DNA of 56,603 bases, filler included, from Nitrospiraceae bacterium (GCA_002726235.1; 3 parts of 3 records of this genome joined end to end with filler, not necessarily neighbours in it), one strand, 5' to 3'. Positions 27,001 through 33,000 are shown, numbered from the whole stretch's first letter. Numbers are program-made.

Positions 27001-30000
27001 CGATCAGTATCTTGGGTGCCCATGAGCTTGACACCCTGAGTGTTTCGCCCAATTTCTCGAATGTTGGTGATCGGGCAGCGGAGGACTTTCCCTTCGGCAG
27101 TCATGATCATGATTTCATCCTCCTCGCTGACTTGAAGGAACGCGACCGCATTGCCATTTCGTTTTGTCGTTTTCACAGAAATAACGCCCTTGCCGGCACG
27201 ACCCTGTGTTCGGTAGCTATCTGACGAACTTCGTTTTCCAAAGCCGTTCTCTGTGACGGTAAGAATCGTCGCCTTTGTGTTCGGTGCAAGTGTCTGCATC
27301 CCGATGACTGTATCGCCCTTCACCAAGCTGATACCCCTCACGCCACGCGAGGGCCGTCCAACGGATCGGGCGTATTTTTCCTTGAATCGAATGACCAGCC
27401 CACTCTGCGTTCCCAGCATGAGATCGTGGTGTCCGTCGGTAACTTCAGTGGCAATCAACTTGTCGCCTTCGTCAAGCTTGATGGCAATAATGCCTCCACT
27501 TCTTGGATGACTATACGCCGAAAGCGCCGTCTTCTTTACAACCCCATTCTTGGTCCCCATCACAACATACCGGTCATCTCGAAATTCACTGACGGGAAGG
27601 ACAGTGGTCACATGTTCGTCGTCTGCCAAGGCGAGCAGATTGACGATCGCGCGTCCCTTGGTGTTGCGGCCAGCTTCGGGAAGTTCATGCACCTTCAACC
27701 AATAGACCTTGCCCCCATCAGTGAAAAAGAGCAGATAGTCGTGTGTCGATCCCAGATACAGATTTGAGACAAAATCCTCCTCGCGGATACCCATGCCTGT
27801 ACTGCCCTGCCCACCCCGTCGTTGGGATCGATACAACGACGCTGGAGTGCGTTTGATGTACCCCGCATTTGAGATGGTAATGGCCATATCCTCTTGCGCA
27901 ATAAGATCTTCAATGGTCATATCTTCGGCGTATGGAATGATTTCTGTGCGCCGTGTTTCAGGATATTGCGCTTTGATTTCTCCGAGCTCTGTGCGAATGA
28001 TGCCTCGCACTAAGTCCTCGCTGGCAAGCACTGACCGCAAATGAGCAATACGTTCAGTGACATCACGATACTCTTGCATCAATTTTTCTCGCTCAAGTCC
28101 GGTCAGGCTCTGCAAACGCAGAGTACAAATGGCAGTTGCTTGAATGTCACTCATCTCGAACTGCTGCATCAGCCCAGCTCGTGCATCTTGCGGTGTGTCG
28201 GCGTTGCGGATGAGCGCGATGACCGCATCAAGGTTATCGAGGGCACGGGTTAATCCTTCAAGAATATGCGCCCGTTCGAGCGCCTTCTTGAGTTCAAAGG
28301 AAGTTCGGCGAACGACGACTTCCTGACGATGCTTGATAAACTCACTAAGCGCGTCTTTCAACGTCAGGATCTGCGGTGTGTTCCGCACCAGTGCAAGAAG
28401 GATAATGCCAAACGACGTTTGAAGCGGCGTCATCTTATACAGCTGGTTAAGCACGATCGCAGGGATTTGTCCTTTCTTCAGGTCCAGCACGACGCGAATC
28501 CCATCTCGGTCTGACTCATCCCGAAGATCGGAAACACCTTCAACCTTCTTGTCTCGAATGAGATCCGCAATCCGTTCCATCAATTTCGATTTGTTGAGCT
28601 GAAACGGCAGCTCCGTAATGACAAGAGATTCCCGGTCCTTCCGCTCATCTGTTTCTACGGCTGCACGTCCGCGAAGAGTGATAATCCCGCGTCCCGTCTC
28701 ATAGGCTGATTTAATCCCTTGAGAACCAAAGATCATTCCTTTGGTCGGAAAATCCGGGCCTGGAATGAACTGCATCAATTGTTCGACAGTGATATTCGCA
28801 TTATCCATAAGGGCCAACAGCCCATCAATAAGTTCGGCAGCACAATGCGGCGGTATCTTCGTCGCCATGCCCACAGCAATACCTTCCGATCCATTCATCA
28901 GAAGGTTCGGAGCTTTCGAGGGCAACACGACAGGTTCGACGGACGATTCGTCATATGTCGGACGGAAATCCACAGTTTCCCTGTCGATATCCGTAAGCAA
29001 TGCCTCCGCAAGAGGAGTGAGCCTCGCTTCGGTATAGCGCATGGCGGCTGGAGGATCGCCATCAATGGACCCAAAGTTGCCTTGGCCATCGACCATTGGA
29101 TAACGCATGTTGAAGGCTTGCGCCATCCTGACCTCAGAGTCATAGATCGCGGAGTCACCGTGGGGATGATAGTTCCCCATGATTTCGCCAACGATCTTGG
29201 CCGATTTGCGATAGGCCCGATTCGACGCCAGACCCATCTCGTTCATGCCATGTAGAATCCGGCGATGAACCGGCTTGAGACCATCACGTACATCCGGCAG
29301 CGCACGGCCTACGATCACACTCATCGCATAGGCCATATACGATGAACGCATCTCGTCTTCTAAAGCAATATGGTCGAGTTGTTCTTCAAGTCCCATGGGT
29401 ACAATCCAGAGAAGTCAAAATTTAAATGTCGAGTTGGATCACTTCTGCAGCATGCGCTTGGATAAACTGACGACGTGGTTCGACGGCGTCACCCATCAAA
29501 ATGGTGAAGATGTTATCGATTTCAACGAGATCGTCCATGGTGACTTTGATAAATCGCCGGGTCTCGGGGTTCATAGTGGTTGCCCACAACTGATCGGGGT
29601 TCATTTCTCCGAGCCCCTTATACCGCTGAAGCGACAGACCTTTCTTGCCATACTCCAGCACGGCATCCACAAACGCCGTTGTCGAATAAAATTGTTTCTC
29701 GTCCTCCTTGAACCACGCAGTGCAGGGAAAATCACCGAGACCCAAGGCTGAAGGTGCATGTTTTTGCAGGTCTCGAAATTCCGCCGAGCCAAGAAGTTTA
29801 TGGTCAATGGTCAATTCATGCTGCCACCCGTCCTTGTGAACACGGCCAAATACGCTGAACCCGCCATGCTCTTCATCCTGGTCGAGACGAAAGGACACCT
29901 CGGCGCCTTCGTGGTTTTGCTCGCAGCCACGCTTGACGGTTTCGAGTGTTGTTTCAAGCACCCCACGATCCTTCAGAACAGTGCGATTGAATCCAGAGAC

Positions 30001-33000
30001 GTTGGAGATCGCCCTGAGGAGCATTGATGACCCCACACGAAGCGAGATTCGATCGATGAGACGCTCATAGGCCATCAGTTTTTTGACCACCATCTGAAGC
30101 GACTTGCCCTTAAGTTTTGAGTGATCCCCATTGGGCTGCAAGGTAATATTCTCGACAGCCAAATCGAGCAAATGAGCATTGAGCGCGGGTTCATCCTTCA
30201 GGTATCGCTCGGCATTCCCCTTCTTCACACGGAAGAGCGGCGGCTGAGCAATGAACACATATCCTTTTTCAATGAGATCGGGCATCTGCCTAAAGAAAAA
30301 CGTAAGCAGGAGCGTCCTGATATGGCTCCCATCAACATCGGCATCTGTCATCAAGATGAGCTTGTGATATCTCGTTTTTTCCACGTTGAAATCGTCGCCA
30401 ATCCCAGTTCCCAAGGCGGTGATCAGATGACGAATTTCCTCACTGGATATCATCTTGTCTAACCGAGCCTTCTCGACATTTAGAATCTTTCCCTTGAGCG
30501 GCAAGATCGCTTGGAATTGGCGATTCCGCCCCTGTTTGGCGGACCCCCCTGCAGAATCTCCCTCCACAATGTATAACTCACTGAGGGCCGGATCACGTTC
30601 TGAACAATCGGCTAACTTCCCAGGCAATGATCCGCTGTCAAGTGCTCCCTTTCTCCGAATGAGGTCTTTGGCCTTTCGAGCCGCTTCTCGAGCGCGAGCG
30701 GCATTGAGCGATTTCTCGACAATTTTCTTTGCAACCGAGGGGTTTTCTTCGAAAAATGCTCCAAGTGCATCATTCAGTGAGGCCTCGACAAGGCCTTTGA
30801 CTTCACTGTTTCCAAGCTTGTGTTTGGTTTGACCTTCAAATTGCGGCTTCGTGAGCCGCACGCTAATGACTGCCGTCAGTCCCTCCCGAACATCATCGCC
30901 AGATAGTGACTCACTATCCTTCTTTGACGCCTGCTTCGCCGCCGCGCACGCATTAATGGTGCGGGTCAGACCGGCCTTAAACCCGCTTAGGTGCGTCCCG
31001 CCGTCACGAGTGTTGATGTTGTTGGCAAACGACATGATATTGTCCTTGAACCCATCGTTATACTGGAGAGCAGCCTCGATCCAGATATCACCTTTTTCGC
31101 GAGCGATATAGATGGGTTTGTGCAGTGGAGACTTGTTCTCGTTGAGGTGCTGAACGAAAGTGACAATGCCTCCTTTGTATTTAAAGCAGTGTTCCTTATC
31201 GTGACGCTCATCCCGTATGGAAATTTCAATCCCCTGGTTAAGAAAGGCGAGTTCACGCAACCGTTGCGAGAGTGTGTCAAAGTTACATTCGATGGTCTCG
31301 AAAATTTTTTCATCCGGAAGAAATGTAATGGTTGTTCCTCGTCGTTTGGTCTTGCCTGTAATGTTCAGTGCATCTGTAGGAATGCCTCGTTCATATCGTT
31401 GCTCGAAGACTTTTCCATTCTGGCGAATCTCCAGCTCTAGCCATTCTGACAAGGCATTGACCACTGAGATCCCAACCCCGTGAAGCCCTCCTGAAACTTT
31501 GTAGGCGCCTTCTTCAAACTTTCCACCCGCGTGCAACACAGTAAGGACCACTTCGGCAGCCGACTTTTGCTGCCCGTCGTGAAAATCAGTGGGAATGCCT
31601 CGACCATCGTCTACCACCGTCACGCTATTGTCGCTGTTGATGGTGACTTGGATGGTTTCACAGAATCCAGCCATCGCCTCATCAATGCTGTTATCCACCA
31701 CTTCATACAATAGATGATGGAGTCCGTCGATGCCGGTGCTCCCGATATACATCGCCGGACGTTTCTGAACAGCCTCGAGGCCTTCGAGAACTTTAATTTG
31801 CTCGGAGGTATAGAGTGTCCCACTCTTGATGGCTTGTGATTCTGGACCCATCGCTCCTCCTATATCTTCATCGGCATGACAACACAGAGTGTGCGCACCG
31901 GTCCGTTTTCATGAATAAGACAGGGGCTCGATGACCCCTTCAGCTCCAAAACAACTTGATCGCCATCCATCGAAGCCAAGGCATCCAGTAAATACCGTGC
32001 GTTAAACACCGCTTCGAACCCCTCGCCTTCAGAGTGCGCAGCCAACTCATCTGTCGCCTCTCCGAGATCAGAGGTACTTGAGTGAAGCACGACTCGATTT
32101 GTCTCAAACGTGAGATGAATGGTGTTGACTCGATCGGGGGCGAGCAGCGCAACCCGCCGAATTGCCGTCTCAAAACTTGTTTTTTCGACCGTCACTTTCT
32201 TATCGTTGCCCACAGGAATGACCTGCTCGTAGTCAGGATAGGATCCTTCGATGAGACGTGCGCTCAACAGAAGACCATTCATGCGCAACACAAGCTGAGT
32301 ATCGGTGATTCCAAGCCGCGGCTTCTCATTCTTATCACCAGCAAAATCTGAGAGAAGTCGCTTGATTTCATGAGCAGCTTTCTTCGGAATAATGACGTTC
32401 AGATCTCCCGCACCCGAGGCATCTCCAATATCAAGTTCAGTCACCGCAAGCCGATGGCCATCTGTGCCAATACACTTAAGCACATGTTTCGTGCTCGGCT
32501 CAGACATCTGCGCCACCATAATGTTCACCCCATTCAACATGTATCTCGTATCATGTTCCCCCACCGCATAGGTGGTCTTGCTGAGCATGAGAGAGAGCAA
32601 TTCCGCTGGAATTTCTGGGAGCTCTTTTCCAATCGTCATTGGCATCTTAGGAAAGTCGCCAGGCGACAACGCCATGATCTTGAACTGGCTCGATCCGCAT
32701 AGGATCGAGAGAAAACTGCTGTCCTCCACGGTCGCCATTGCAACATCTGTATCTGGCAATTCCTTGAGAATCTCAAGCAGTTTTCGCGCTGAGACCGCCA
32801 CTCCACCTGGCTGCTTGACCTCAGCGCGATAGAACCCACGAATGCCAATTTCCAGATCCGTCGCAAATATCTCCAAGCCGCCTTCTTTTGTTTCCACCAA
32901 CACGTTCGACAGCATCGGCATCGCGTTCCGCTTCTCAACGACACCCTGAACCCGATGTAACCCTCGCAGTAATTCCTTCCGTGAAATAACGACGTTCATC

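Follow-up and report, generated by a model that had tools for sequence, protein, structure and literature searches.

The marine family to which this MAG of a Nitrospiraceae bacterium belongs has lost recO and recR. The loss is real and specific to the lineage, while the absence of recF is much more widely shared and was already a feature of the ancestor of the order Nitrospirales. We consider it fairly probable that two events of different age are superimposed here, an ancient loss of recF in the order and a later loss of recO and recR in the family, and that RecA loading in the family would now be independent of mediators. The first-pass annotation had described a complete loss of the RecFOR pathway in the lineage. 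This description stands for recO and recR but not for recF, which none of the 40 other Nitrospirales was found to carry. Since recF is missing across the order, the event in the lineage of the MAG is a loss of RecOR and not of RecFOR.

The analysed window, a stretch of 56,603 nt, is made of three contigs joined by N spacers, with contig C15 occupying positions 22990-49184. The source MAG has 1.873 Mb in 27 contigs and is 90.65% complete. The genus was sampled by this MAG and four genus mates (73, 88, 96 and 98% complete) and forms a family of its own within the genome set searched. All five genomes are MAGs and none is closed.

The dnaA-dnaN-gyrB-gyrA Block and the Age of the recF Loss

Four consecutive genes of C15 are encoded by the minus strand and pass their NCBIfam cut-offs: dnaA (33024..34349; 441 aa; TIGR00362, 553.4 bits versus a cut-off of 343.9), dnaN, which codes for the DNA polymerase III beta clamp (31860..32999; 379 aa; TIGR00663, 289.7 bits versus 137.65), gyrB (29422..31851; 809 aa; TIGR01059, 985 bits versus 882.4; NF011501, 1150.5 bits) and gyrA (26943..29396; 817 aa; TIGR01063, 1163 bits versus 877). 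The dnaN stop codon (TAG, 31860-31862) is followed by the 8-nt Shine-Dalgarno-like spacer GAGGAGCG (31852..31859, minus strand) and then directly by the gyrB ATG at 31851, confirming the gene order and 8-bp spacer of the first-pass annotation. As context, the segment upstream of dnaA (34350..36000, no strand assigned) is a probable oriC region with a low G+C content (0.44 versus ~0.51 elsewhere) and a switch of GC skew sign near 34 kb. Three DnaA-box-like sites with one mismatch each lie at 34426-34602, the number of such sites over the window not being above chance.

In many other bacteria the gene found between dnaN and gyrB is recF, which codes for an SMC-like ATPase of ~360 aa. The best match of this MAG to the recF model TIGR00611 scored 31.5 bits against a cut-off of 172 and belongs to a 1194-aa frame of SMC size; the model exceeded its cut-off in none of the four genus mates. 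A 366-aa frame on contig C7 to which the two ends of the recF model align was also inspected and rejected as RecF: its 267-aa ORF, judged by translation alone, looks like an ABC-transporter ATPase and lies beside a binding-protein-like ORF.

The junction had been interpreted as a clean deletion of recF, but the same state is found throughout the order. In a survey that, for some of the larger genomes, scored only the top 25-36 first-look candidates, recF was found in none of the 40 other Nitrospirales (0/45 Nitrospirales in all) and in 13 of the 70 other Nitrospirota (13/71 Nitrospirota in all). dnaN abuts gyrB in all 25 dnaN loci whose titles carry the stem Nitrospir (gap of 11-65 nt), versus a gap longer than 1 kb in 26 of the 30 loci titled otherwise. 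recF was thus already gone in the Nitrospirales ancestor, and most Nitrospirota lack it. A dnaA-dnaN-gyrB-gyrA block is normal for the order, the recF part of the observation is ordinary, and the Nitrospirales run a RecOR pathway without RecF.

Absence of recO and recR

The recO model (TIGR00613) returned nothing at E ≤ 10 in this MAG or in any of the four genus mates; recO is thus found in none of the five genus genomes but in all 40 of the other Nitrospirales. RecR is composed of helix-hairpin-helix (HhH), zinc finger and Toprim domains. The best score of its model (TIGR00615) in this MAG was 14.7 bits versus a cut-off of 162.55 and corresponds to the HhH of RuvA; the 199-aa frame on contig C8 with the top RecR score was accordingly identified as RuvA and rejected. 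recR is likewise missing in the four genus mates. It was detected in 113 of the 116 other genomes of the order, in agreement with the earlier statement that nearly all other Nitrospirales have it, and in 104 of 110 genomes across the phylum. The six phylum genomes that lack a match are scattered; four belong to genera that have recR in other genomes and four are only 71-87% complete.

Profiles specific for the order were made from 15 RecO and 15 RecR sequences of Nitrospirales. The RecO profile detected no copy in the five genus genomes (best local hmmsearch result E 0.35) and the RecR profile retrieved solely the RuvA HhH motif in all five (~14 bits). Pfam RecO_N (PF11967) gave only noise in the genus, as did the Helicobacter-type RecO_N_2 (PF13114), a weak negative because the latter exceeds its cut-off in none of 14 control genomes. 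The family models therefore bear out the claim that recF, recO and recR are missing in all five genomes of the genus.

The sites at which relatives carry the two genes were inspected individually. Their gene orders are dnaX-ybaB-recR, the classic position of recR, and mgtE-recO. On C7 of this MAG dnaX and ybaB are followed after 18 nt by gltB, as reported in the first-pass annotation. In each of the five genomes the sequence runs unbroken from ybaB into gltB, and single BLAST pieces span this junction in all four mates. At the recO site, mgtE is followed in this MAG not by recO but by an ORF of 59 aa and a gene for a secreted DUF2141 protein. Neither ORF is a RecO remnant: the 59-aa ORF is without match and the other, of 157 aa, codes for a DUF2141 protein with a signal peptide. 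This arrangement is common to only one of the mates, G012, mgtE not having been found as an anchor of the site in the other three (G004, G008 and G016).

It is highly improbable that recO and recR are present in these genomes and were left unassembled, unbinned or are too divergent for the models used. All genus genomes are MAGs of 73-98% completeness and RecO families can diverge strongly, but five independent MAGs agree, the two genes were recovered at the frequencies given above from other genomes of the order, many of them equally fragmented, and the ybaB-gltB junction is uninterrupted. The strong conservation of RecR within the order (76% mean column identity) makes a hidden copy implausible, and RecO was never found without RecR among 117 genomes surveyed (PMC1193525). 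The earlier conclusion that the absences are no assembly artefact is thus upheld by the contiguous junction and by the lack of recO and recR in all five genomes.

Recombination and Repair Genes Retained in the Genus

RecA (TIGR02012) scores 557.9 bits in this MAG (cut-off 325.3) and exceeds the cut-off in all five genus genomes. RecJ, the gap and 5′-end nuclease of the RecF pathway, is also found in all five, and so are matches to PD-(D/E)XK nucleases. RecN, RadA, RuvA, RuvB, MutS, MutL, MutS2 and UvrB are above their cut-offs in this MAG and a UvrD/PcrA-like helicase was seen. With RecA, RuvA/RuvB, MutS/MutL and others kept, there is no endosymbiont-type erosion of recombination and repair. 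RecQ, PriA, RecG, RarA and DinB gave no match with crude motif patterns on this 90%-complete MAG, a result too weak to be taken as absence. DprA, the other known bacterial RecA mediator (TIGR00732), was found in none of the five genomes at E ≤ 0.001; its absence besides that of RecO and RecR leaves no known RecA mediator. Loss of the SSB C-terminal tip (..DDDIPF) was rejected as a trait of the lineage, the tip being equally missing in 26 of 26 other Nitrospirales SSBs; as a soft observation, the end motif is merely more degenerate in the genus.

AddA is a UvrD-like helicase with a C-terminal PD-(D/E)XK nuclease, AddB has a C-terminal PD-(D/E)XK nuclease and their genes are adjacent. The genes found here show this architecture and adjacency: they overlap by 4 nt and encode a 1072-aa AddA-like protein with UvrD-helicase, UvrD_C and PDDEXK_1 domains and a 972-aa AddB-like protein with PDDEXK_1 at residues 699-953. 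The pair is named AddAB-like because the NCBIfam equivalog thresholds are not reached (addA_alphas, 327.6 bits versus a cut-off of 860.75; addB_alphas, 94.4 bits versus 486.5).

RecA loading had been said to rely necessarily on AddAB alone. An AddAB-type enzyme acting as sole RecA loader, as E. coli RecBCD does, would confine all recombinational repair to double-strand ends, such as those of reversed or broken forks, and we find this explanation doubtful. The genus does keep addB-addA genes of the expected domain architecture, and H. pylori recA has to be co-expressed with the recBCD-type genes for complementation of an E. coli recBCD mutant, which hints at a cognate interaction (PMC4499154). 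The same source, however, treats the loading of RecA by B. subtilis AddAB, which would be onto the resected 3′ strand, as unproven and reports that RecO is required in this bacterium even with AddAB. Furthermore, AddAB works only from a DNA end, so that daughter-strand gaps are no substrate for it, and the AddA-like and AddB-like proteins are far under the equivalog cut-offs. The retention of RecJ in the five genomes also indicates that RecA is still supplied by resection that does not involve AddAB.

A RecA without C-Terminal Tail

The four complete RecA copies of the genus all stop 7 residues past the last core helix, lacking the tail carried by other RecAs of the order: 28 of 29 other Nitrospirales RecAs extend 24-47 residues past this helix, the lone exception being cut by a contig end. 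The stop codon of the genus RecA is real and is followed by further in-frame stops. In the E. coli chain, which has 352 residues, this position matches residue ~331. RecAs without a tail are not rare: of the best 150, 32 representatives could be aligned at the C-terminus, and 5 of these have tails of ≤11 residues. No revealing substitution occurs at the positions equivalent to E38 and V37 (E. coli RecA730/803); the E38-equivalent residue is S or P in the genus and P or Q in relatives, and is uninformative.

The tail loss may mean that RecA is loaded independently of mediators. E. coli RecA deltaC17 and RecA E38K are laboratory variants that do not need mediators. Like deltaC17, the genus RecA lacks everything that matches the deleted tail (end at ~331). 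It differs from both variants in being natural and in the character of the ancestral tail: the E. coli tail is acidic, whereas the tails seen in the rest of the order are net neutral or basic, so that the E. coli autoinhibition model is not simply transferable. Deletion of the E. coli RecA C-terminus is reported to accelerate binding to SSB-coated single-stranded DNA (PMC5605508). We propose only tentatively, as a rather unlikely possibility, that the family RecA is a natural counterpart of the C-terminal deletion that nucleates by itself on SSB-coated DNA, making RecO and RecR dispensable or compensating for their loss. Tail loss and RecOR loss lie on one shared branch and are therefore a single evolutionary event, without replication.

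Discussion

Loss in two steps is the interpretation that we favor. recF would have been absent before the Nitrospirales radiation, leaving the order with RecOR, and the basal marine family of the MAG would then have lost recO and recR too, having no DprA either. RecA, RecJ and a helicase-nuclease of the AddAB type were retained in the five genomes of the family. The AddAB-like enzyme and RecJ would generate single-stranded DNA, and RecA would nucleate on the SSB-coated DNA with no dedicated mediator. Properties of RecA itself, possibly including the lost tail, may make the absence of mediators tolerable, and a slow-growing lifestyle in dark habitats may reduce the need for fast gap repair. The family is reported from marine sediments and vents and fixes carbon via the rTCA cycle (PMC12342949); a free-living lifestyle is plausible. 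The same report describes a long phylogenetic branch for the family, to which the RecOR loss might be related.

A non-orthologous replacement is conceivable, although we judge it improbable. An unrecognised mediator (RecO-like but very divergent, Rad52/SSAP-like or entirely new), with its gene at another place in these genomes, would load RecA and render RecOR dispensable. The other recombination machinery is intact, showing that the pathway is clearly in use. H. pylori RecO escaped detection for years (PMC2475510), Rocha et al. argue for presynaptic systems still to be recognised (PMC1193525), and any of the 544 family-specific genes reported for the family (PMC12342949) could code for such a mediator. 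Our searches, which did not extend to a genome-wide comparison of folds, nevertheless yielded no candidate: the recR and recO sites hold nothing unusual, and the 193-aa ORF adjoining addA is matched by no Pfam or NCBIfam family and has no apparent tie to RecA.

Comparison with known systems sets the favored two-step loss in context. Other Nitrospirales and many RecF-less bacteria that are RecOR-only likewise lack recF, have dnaN abutting gyrB and possess RecA, SSB and RecJ; the other Nitrospirales keep RecO (40/40) and RecR (113/116), of which the family of the MAG has neither. Helicobacter pylori has no RecF but has AddAB, RecR and a very divergent RecO. The genus resembles it in having a seemingly incomplete presynaptic set beside AddAB, and differs in lacking RecR and any match to RecO_N or RecO_N_2. 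The RecR-less genomes in Rocha et al. 2005, which are reportedly mostly those of endosymbionts and mollicutes, share with the family the joint absence of RecF, RecO and RecR. Unlike them, the family shows no general erosion of repair, keeping RecA, AddAB-like, RecJ, RecN, RadA, RuvAB, MutSL, MutS2 and UvrB, and it is a ~2-Mb marine autotroph-like lineage that is no known symbiont. In that survey RecR is missing in 10 of 117 genomes, RecO or RecF are never present without it, and RecBCD/AddAB and RecFOR are usually co-present or co-absent (PMC1193525). The family runs contrary to this trend, AddAB-like and RecFOR being uncoupled.

Few recombination genes are as widely conserved as recO and recR; recO is present in more than 95% of 782 free-living genomes, according to a survey cited in PMC4499154. 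Although every known RecA mediator is missing from the lineage described here, it has retained mismatch repair and an end-resection enzyme as well as RecA, RecJ, RecN, RadA and RuvAB. It is thus a natural test case for whether RecA works mediator-free in vivo or depends on mediators still to be discovered, and its truncated RecA provides a concrete pair for the bench, tail-less versus tailed Nitrospirales RecA. If self-loading is true, a whole environmental lineage would run RecA-dependent gap and break repair without a recombination mediator.

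The dnaA-dnaN-gyrB-gyrA Region

The metagenome-assembled genome (MAG) has a size of 1.873 Mb in 27 contigs (90.65% complete, 0.49% contaminated), three of which are represented in the window and separated by N spacers: C14 (1-22889), C15 (22990-49184) and C24 (49285-56603). C15 carries four long ORFs arranged head-to-tail on the minus strand, which curated NCBIfam cut-offs identify as dnaA (33024-34349), dnaN (31860-32999), gyrB (29422-31851) and gyrA (26943-29396). The TAG termination codon of dnaN is separated from the gyrB ATG by 8 nt (GAGGAGCG, minus strand). This confirms the gene order and the 8-bp spacer described in the first-pass annotation. 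Upstream of dnaA (34350-36000) the G+C content is down to 0.44 and the GC skew switches sign, as fits a replication origin, and this segment is likely oriC. Three DnaA-box-like sites with one mismatch each are found at 34426-34602, the window-wide number of such sites being not above chance. The G+C content of C24 is 0.36-0.41 compared to ~0.50 elsewhere; this contig may be a foreign island or mis-binned.

recF Is Anciently Absent from the Nitrospirales

The short dnaN-gyrB junction had been interpreted as a clean deletion of recF. The recF model (TIGR00611) reaches at best 31.5 bits in the MAG, within a 1194-aa frame of SMC size, and is over cut-off in none of the four other genomes of the genus (genus mates). 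A 366-aa frame matching both ends of the model was discarded: its translation reads as an ABC-transporter ATPase. At E<=1e-15 recF was found in none of 45 Nitrospirales genomes, 40 of them outside the genus, the best 36 first-look candidates being scored in some of the larger genomes. It is present in 13 of 71 Nitrospirota genomes, restricted to three families. A DnaN scan with one genome per species gave 72 loci, 55 of which also carry gyrB. The distance from dnaN to gyrB is 11-65 nt (median 31) in all 25 loci titled Nitrospirales, Nitrospirae, Nitrospirota or Nitrospiraceae; among the other 30 the gap exceeds 1 kb, the size of recF, in 26, is 340 nt in one and shorter than 70 nt in three. 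Given the absence of recF from the 40 genomes outside the genus and the 25 tight junctions, dnaN-gyrB without recF is the ancestral, ordinary gene order of Nitrospirales rather than a deletion of this lineage. Ancestral absence agrees with RecF being the least widespread of RecF, RecO and RecR (missing in 29 of the 117 genomes compared in PMC1193525); a survey cited in PMC4499154 places recF in ~30% of 782 free-living genomes. gyrB also directly follows dnaN in three loci not titled Nitrospir- (L023, L024 and L026; one Thermodesulfobacteriota MAG and two "uncultured bacterium" MAGs), whose DnaN are 37-38% similar to the query, about the same as deep Nitrospirota DnaN.

Loss of recO and recR in the Genus

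The recR model (TIGR00615) scores at most 14.7 bits in the MAG against a cut-off of 162.55, and the match is not RecR, corresponding to the helix-hairpin-helix of RuvA. The recO model (TIGR00613) has no match at E<=10. Neither gene was found in the four genus mates (73, 88, 96 and 98% complete; E<=10 for recO). Profiles of the order itself were built from 15 RecO (13 genera) and 15 RecR (14 genera), all from other Nitrospirales. Their best E-values in a local six-frame hmmsearch of the MAG are 0.35 for RecO and 0.036 for RecR, the latter again RuvA; searched in the five genomes of the genus, the RecO alignment found none and the RecR alignment just the RuvA motif in each (~14 bits). Pfam RecO_N and the Helicobacter-type RecO_N_2 returned only noise, the RecO_N_2 negative being a weak one as this model is over cut-off in zero control genomes.

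All 40 other Nitrospirales searched carry recO, and 113 of 116 carry recR; two of the three without recR (G028 and G031) do have recO. Among other Nitrospirota genomes recR is found in 104 of 110. The six lacking it are scattered singletons, four belonging to genera with recR in other genomes and four being only 71-87% complete. Both genes are missing in every genome only in this genus, which forms a family of its own in the searched set. The loss of recO and recR is real and lineage-specific. This part of the proposed loss of RecFOR is thus upheld, while its recF part is not, the supposed deletion being ordinary and ancestral. In the 117-genome comparison RecR is missing in 10 genomes, and RecO or RecF never occur without RecR (PMC1193525); recO is present in >95% of 782 free-living genomes according to the survey cited in PMC4499154. 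In G031, from another Nitrospirales family, recO lies in two adjacent frames (C272:3300-4018; model positions 58-232 and 2-58), possibly a frameshift or sequencing error.

The gene orders in relatives are dnaX-ybaB-recR and mgtE-recO. In the MAG, gltB begins 18 nt beyond ybaB (C7:126063-126422), and a 1.7-kb query spanning this junction aligns in one piece in all four mates, which bears out the reported replacement of recR by gltB after dnaX-ybaB. Downstream of mgtE (C4:134644-136575; L091:4145-6076) are found a 59-aa ORF without matches, a secreted DUF2141 protein and then a convergent M16-type peptidase. The mgtE-DUF2141 arrangement is shared among the mates only by G012; the search for mgtE found no copy in the remaining three, which makes it an anchor of limited use for the recO site.

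Retained Recombination Functions and the Role of AddAB

RecA and RecJ are over cut-off in all five genomes of the genus, and the MAG also encodes RecN, RuvA, RuvB, MutS, MutL, MutS2, UvrB, RadA/Sms and a UvrD/PcrA-like helicase. Two overlapping genes (C8:536657-542790) code for a 972-aa protein with a C-terminal PD-(D/E)XK nuclease and a 1072-aa protein that combines a UvrD-type helicase with a nuclease at its C terminus. This is the domain layout of AddB-AddA, but with scores well short of the equivalog cut-offs for AddA and AddB, the two proteins are named AddAB-like only. A 193-aa ORF without Pfam or NCBIfam match is convergent with addA (C8:542808-543389; L129:8309-8890, minus strand). DprA, the other known bacterial RecA mediator, was found by model search in none of the five genomes. 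With such a broad set, this is not the general repair decay of reduced symbionts: in this genus the mediator step alone is missing.

It had been proposed that RecA loading relies on AddAB alone. AddAB requires a DNA end, and daughter-strand gaps are beyond its reach. The retention of RecJ shows that AddAB-independent resection is still in use. RecBCD loads RecA directly, while for AddAB this is described as unknown in PMC4499154; in B. subtilis RecA is not activated by AddAB and RecO is needed even with AddAB present (PMC4499154). Loading by AddAB alone is accordingly possible for breaks, but there is no support for it as a complete explanation. Across the 117 genomes, RecBCD/AddAB and RecFOR tend to co-occur (PMC1193525).

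RecA and SSB Carboxyl Termini

RecA was aligned for 29 other Nitrospirales and the four complete copies of the genus, leaving out G016, in which recA is divided between two contig ends. The four genus proteins end 7 residues past the last core helix. In 28 of the 29 others 24-47 further residues follow, the exception (L145) being cut by a contig end. The stop codon of the MAG recA is followed by more in-frame stops and a 117 nt spacer to alaS. In a comparison with solved structures, the aligned part of the MAG RecA (residues 23-348) covers positions 6-330 of E. coli RecA, a chain of 352 residues; its end thus falls at about E. coli position 331, before the 17-residue stretch that RecA deltaC17 lacks. 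Past alignments that end near the MAG RecA carboxyl terminus, the chains of M. smegmatis and T. maritima run on for 21-23 residues; the D. radiodurans chain does so for 27, past an alignment ending slightly earlier. E. coli RecA with a C-terminal deletion or E38K binds SSB-coated ssDNA much faster (PMC5605508). By analogy, the tail-less RecA suggests that loading may proceed without help, a reading that we consider rather improbable. Several points call for caution. The tails of other Nitrospirales, rich in lysine, glutamate and proline, carry a neutral to basic rather than an acidic net charge. The residue equivalent to E38 is uninformative between genus and relatives. The losses of the tail and of RecOR share one single branch. 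Short tails occur elsewhere as a minority (<=11 residues in 5 of 32 C-terminally alignable representatives among the best 150). In Nitrospiraceae recX follows recA (Pfam RecX domains at L131:2599-3096); at the recA locus of the genus and of many genomes of family f3, alaS comes directly after recA with no space for recX (loci L130, L096 and L160 versus L131-L159).

Each genome of the genus has a single SSB, encoded in an rpsF-ssb operon. SSBs from 31 Nitrospirales genomes (L163-L193) are short (129-137 aa) and lack the canonical C-terminal ..DDDIPF tip; the acidic ..IPF tip is also absent from all 26 SSBs examined outside the genus and its absence is not genus-specific. The C-termini of Nitrospirales SSBs carry aromatic-acidic motifs, among them SYESEEYA, HYESDEPI and GYEMGEEG. 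This end motif is degenerate in the RecOR-less genus, a soft hint that constraint may have relaxed once a tail-binding partner (for example RecO) was lost.

RecA Loading in the UBA2166 Lineage

The genus is named UBA2166 in the first-pass annotation. The UBA2166 family is described in a 2025 comparison of the order (PMC12342949) as basal and the sole Nitrospirales clade without nitrite oxidoreductase; that comparison reports rTCA carbon fixation, a long branch, 544 genes specific to the family and a distribution that takes in marine sediments and vents. A term search of its main text finds no "recombination", "RecA" or "DNA repair"; it is the only paper found under the family name. The best reading of RecA loading in the genus is mediator-independent nucleation: the AddAB-like enzyme and RecJ would supply the substrate on which RecA nucleates, possibly helped by its missing tail. 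Its main rival is loading by an unrecognised mediator. The lineage is marine and otherwise recombination-competent; its loss of both RecO and RecR, combined with a lack of DprA, is real and uncommon.
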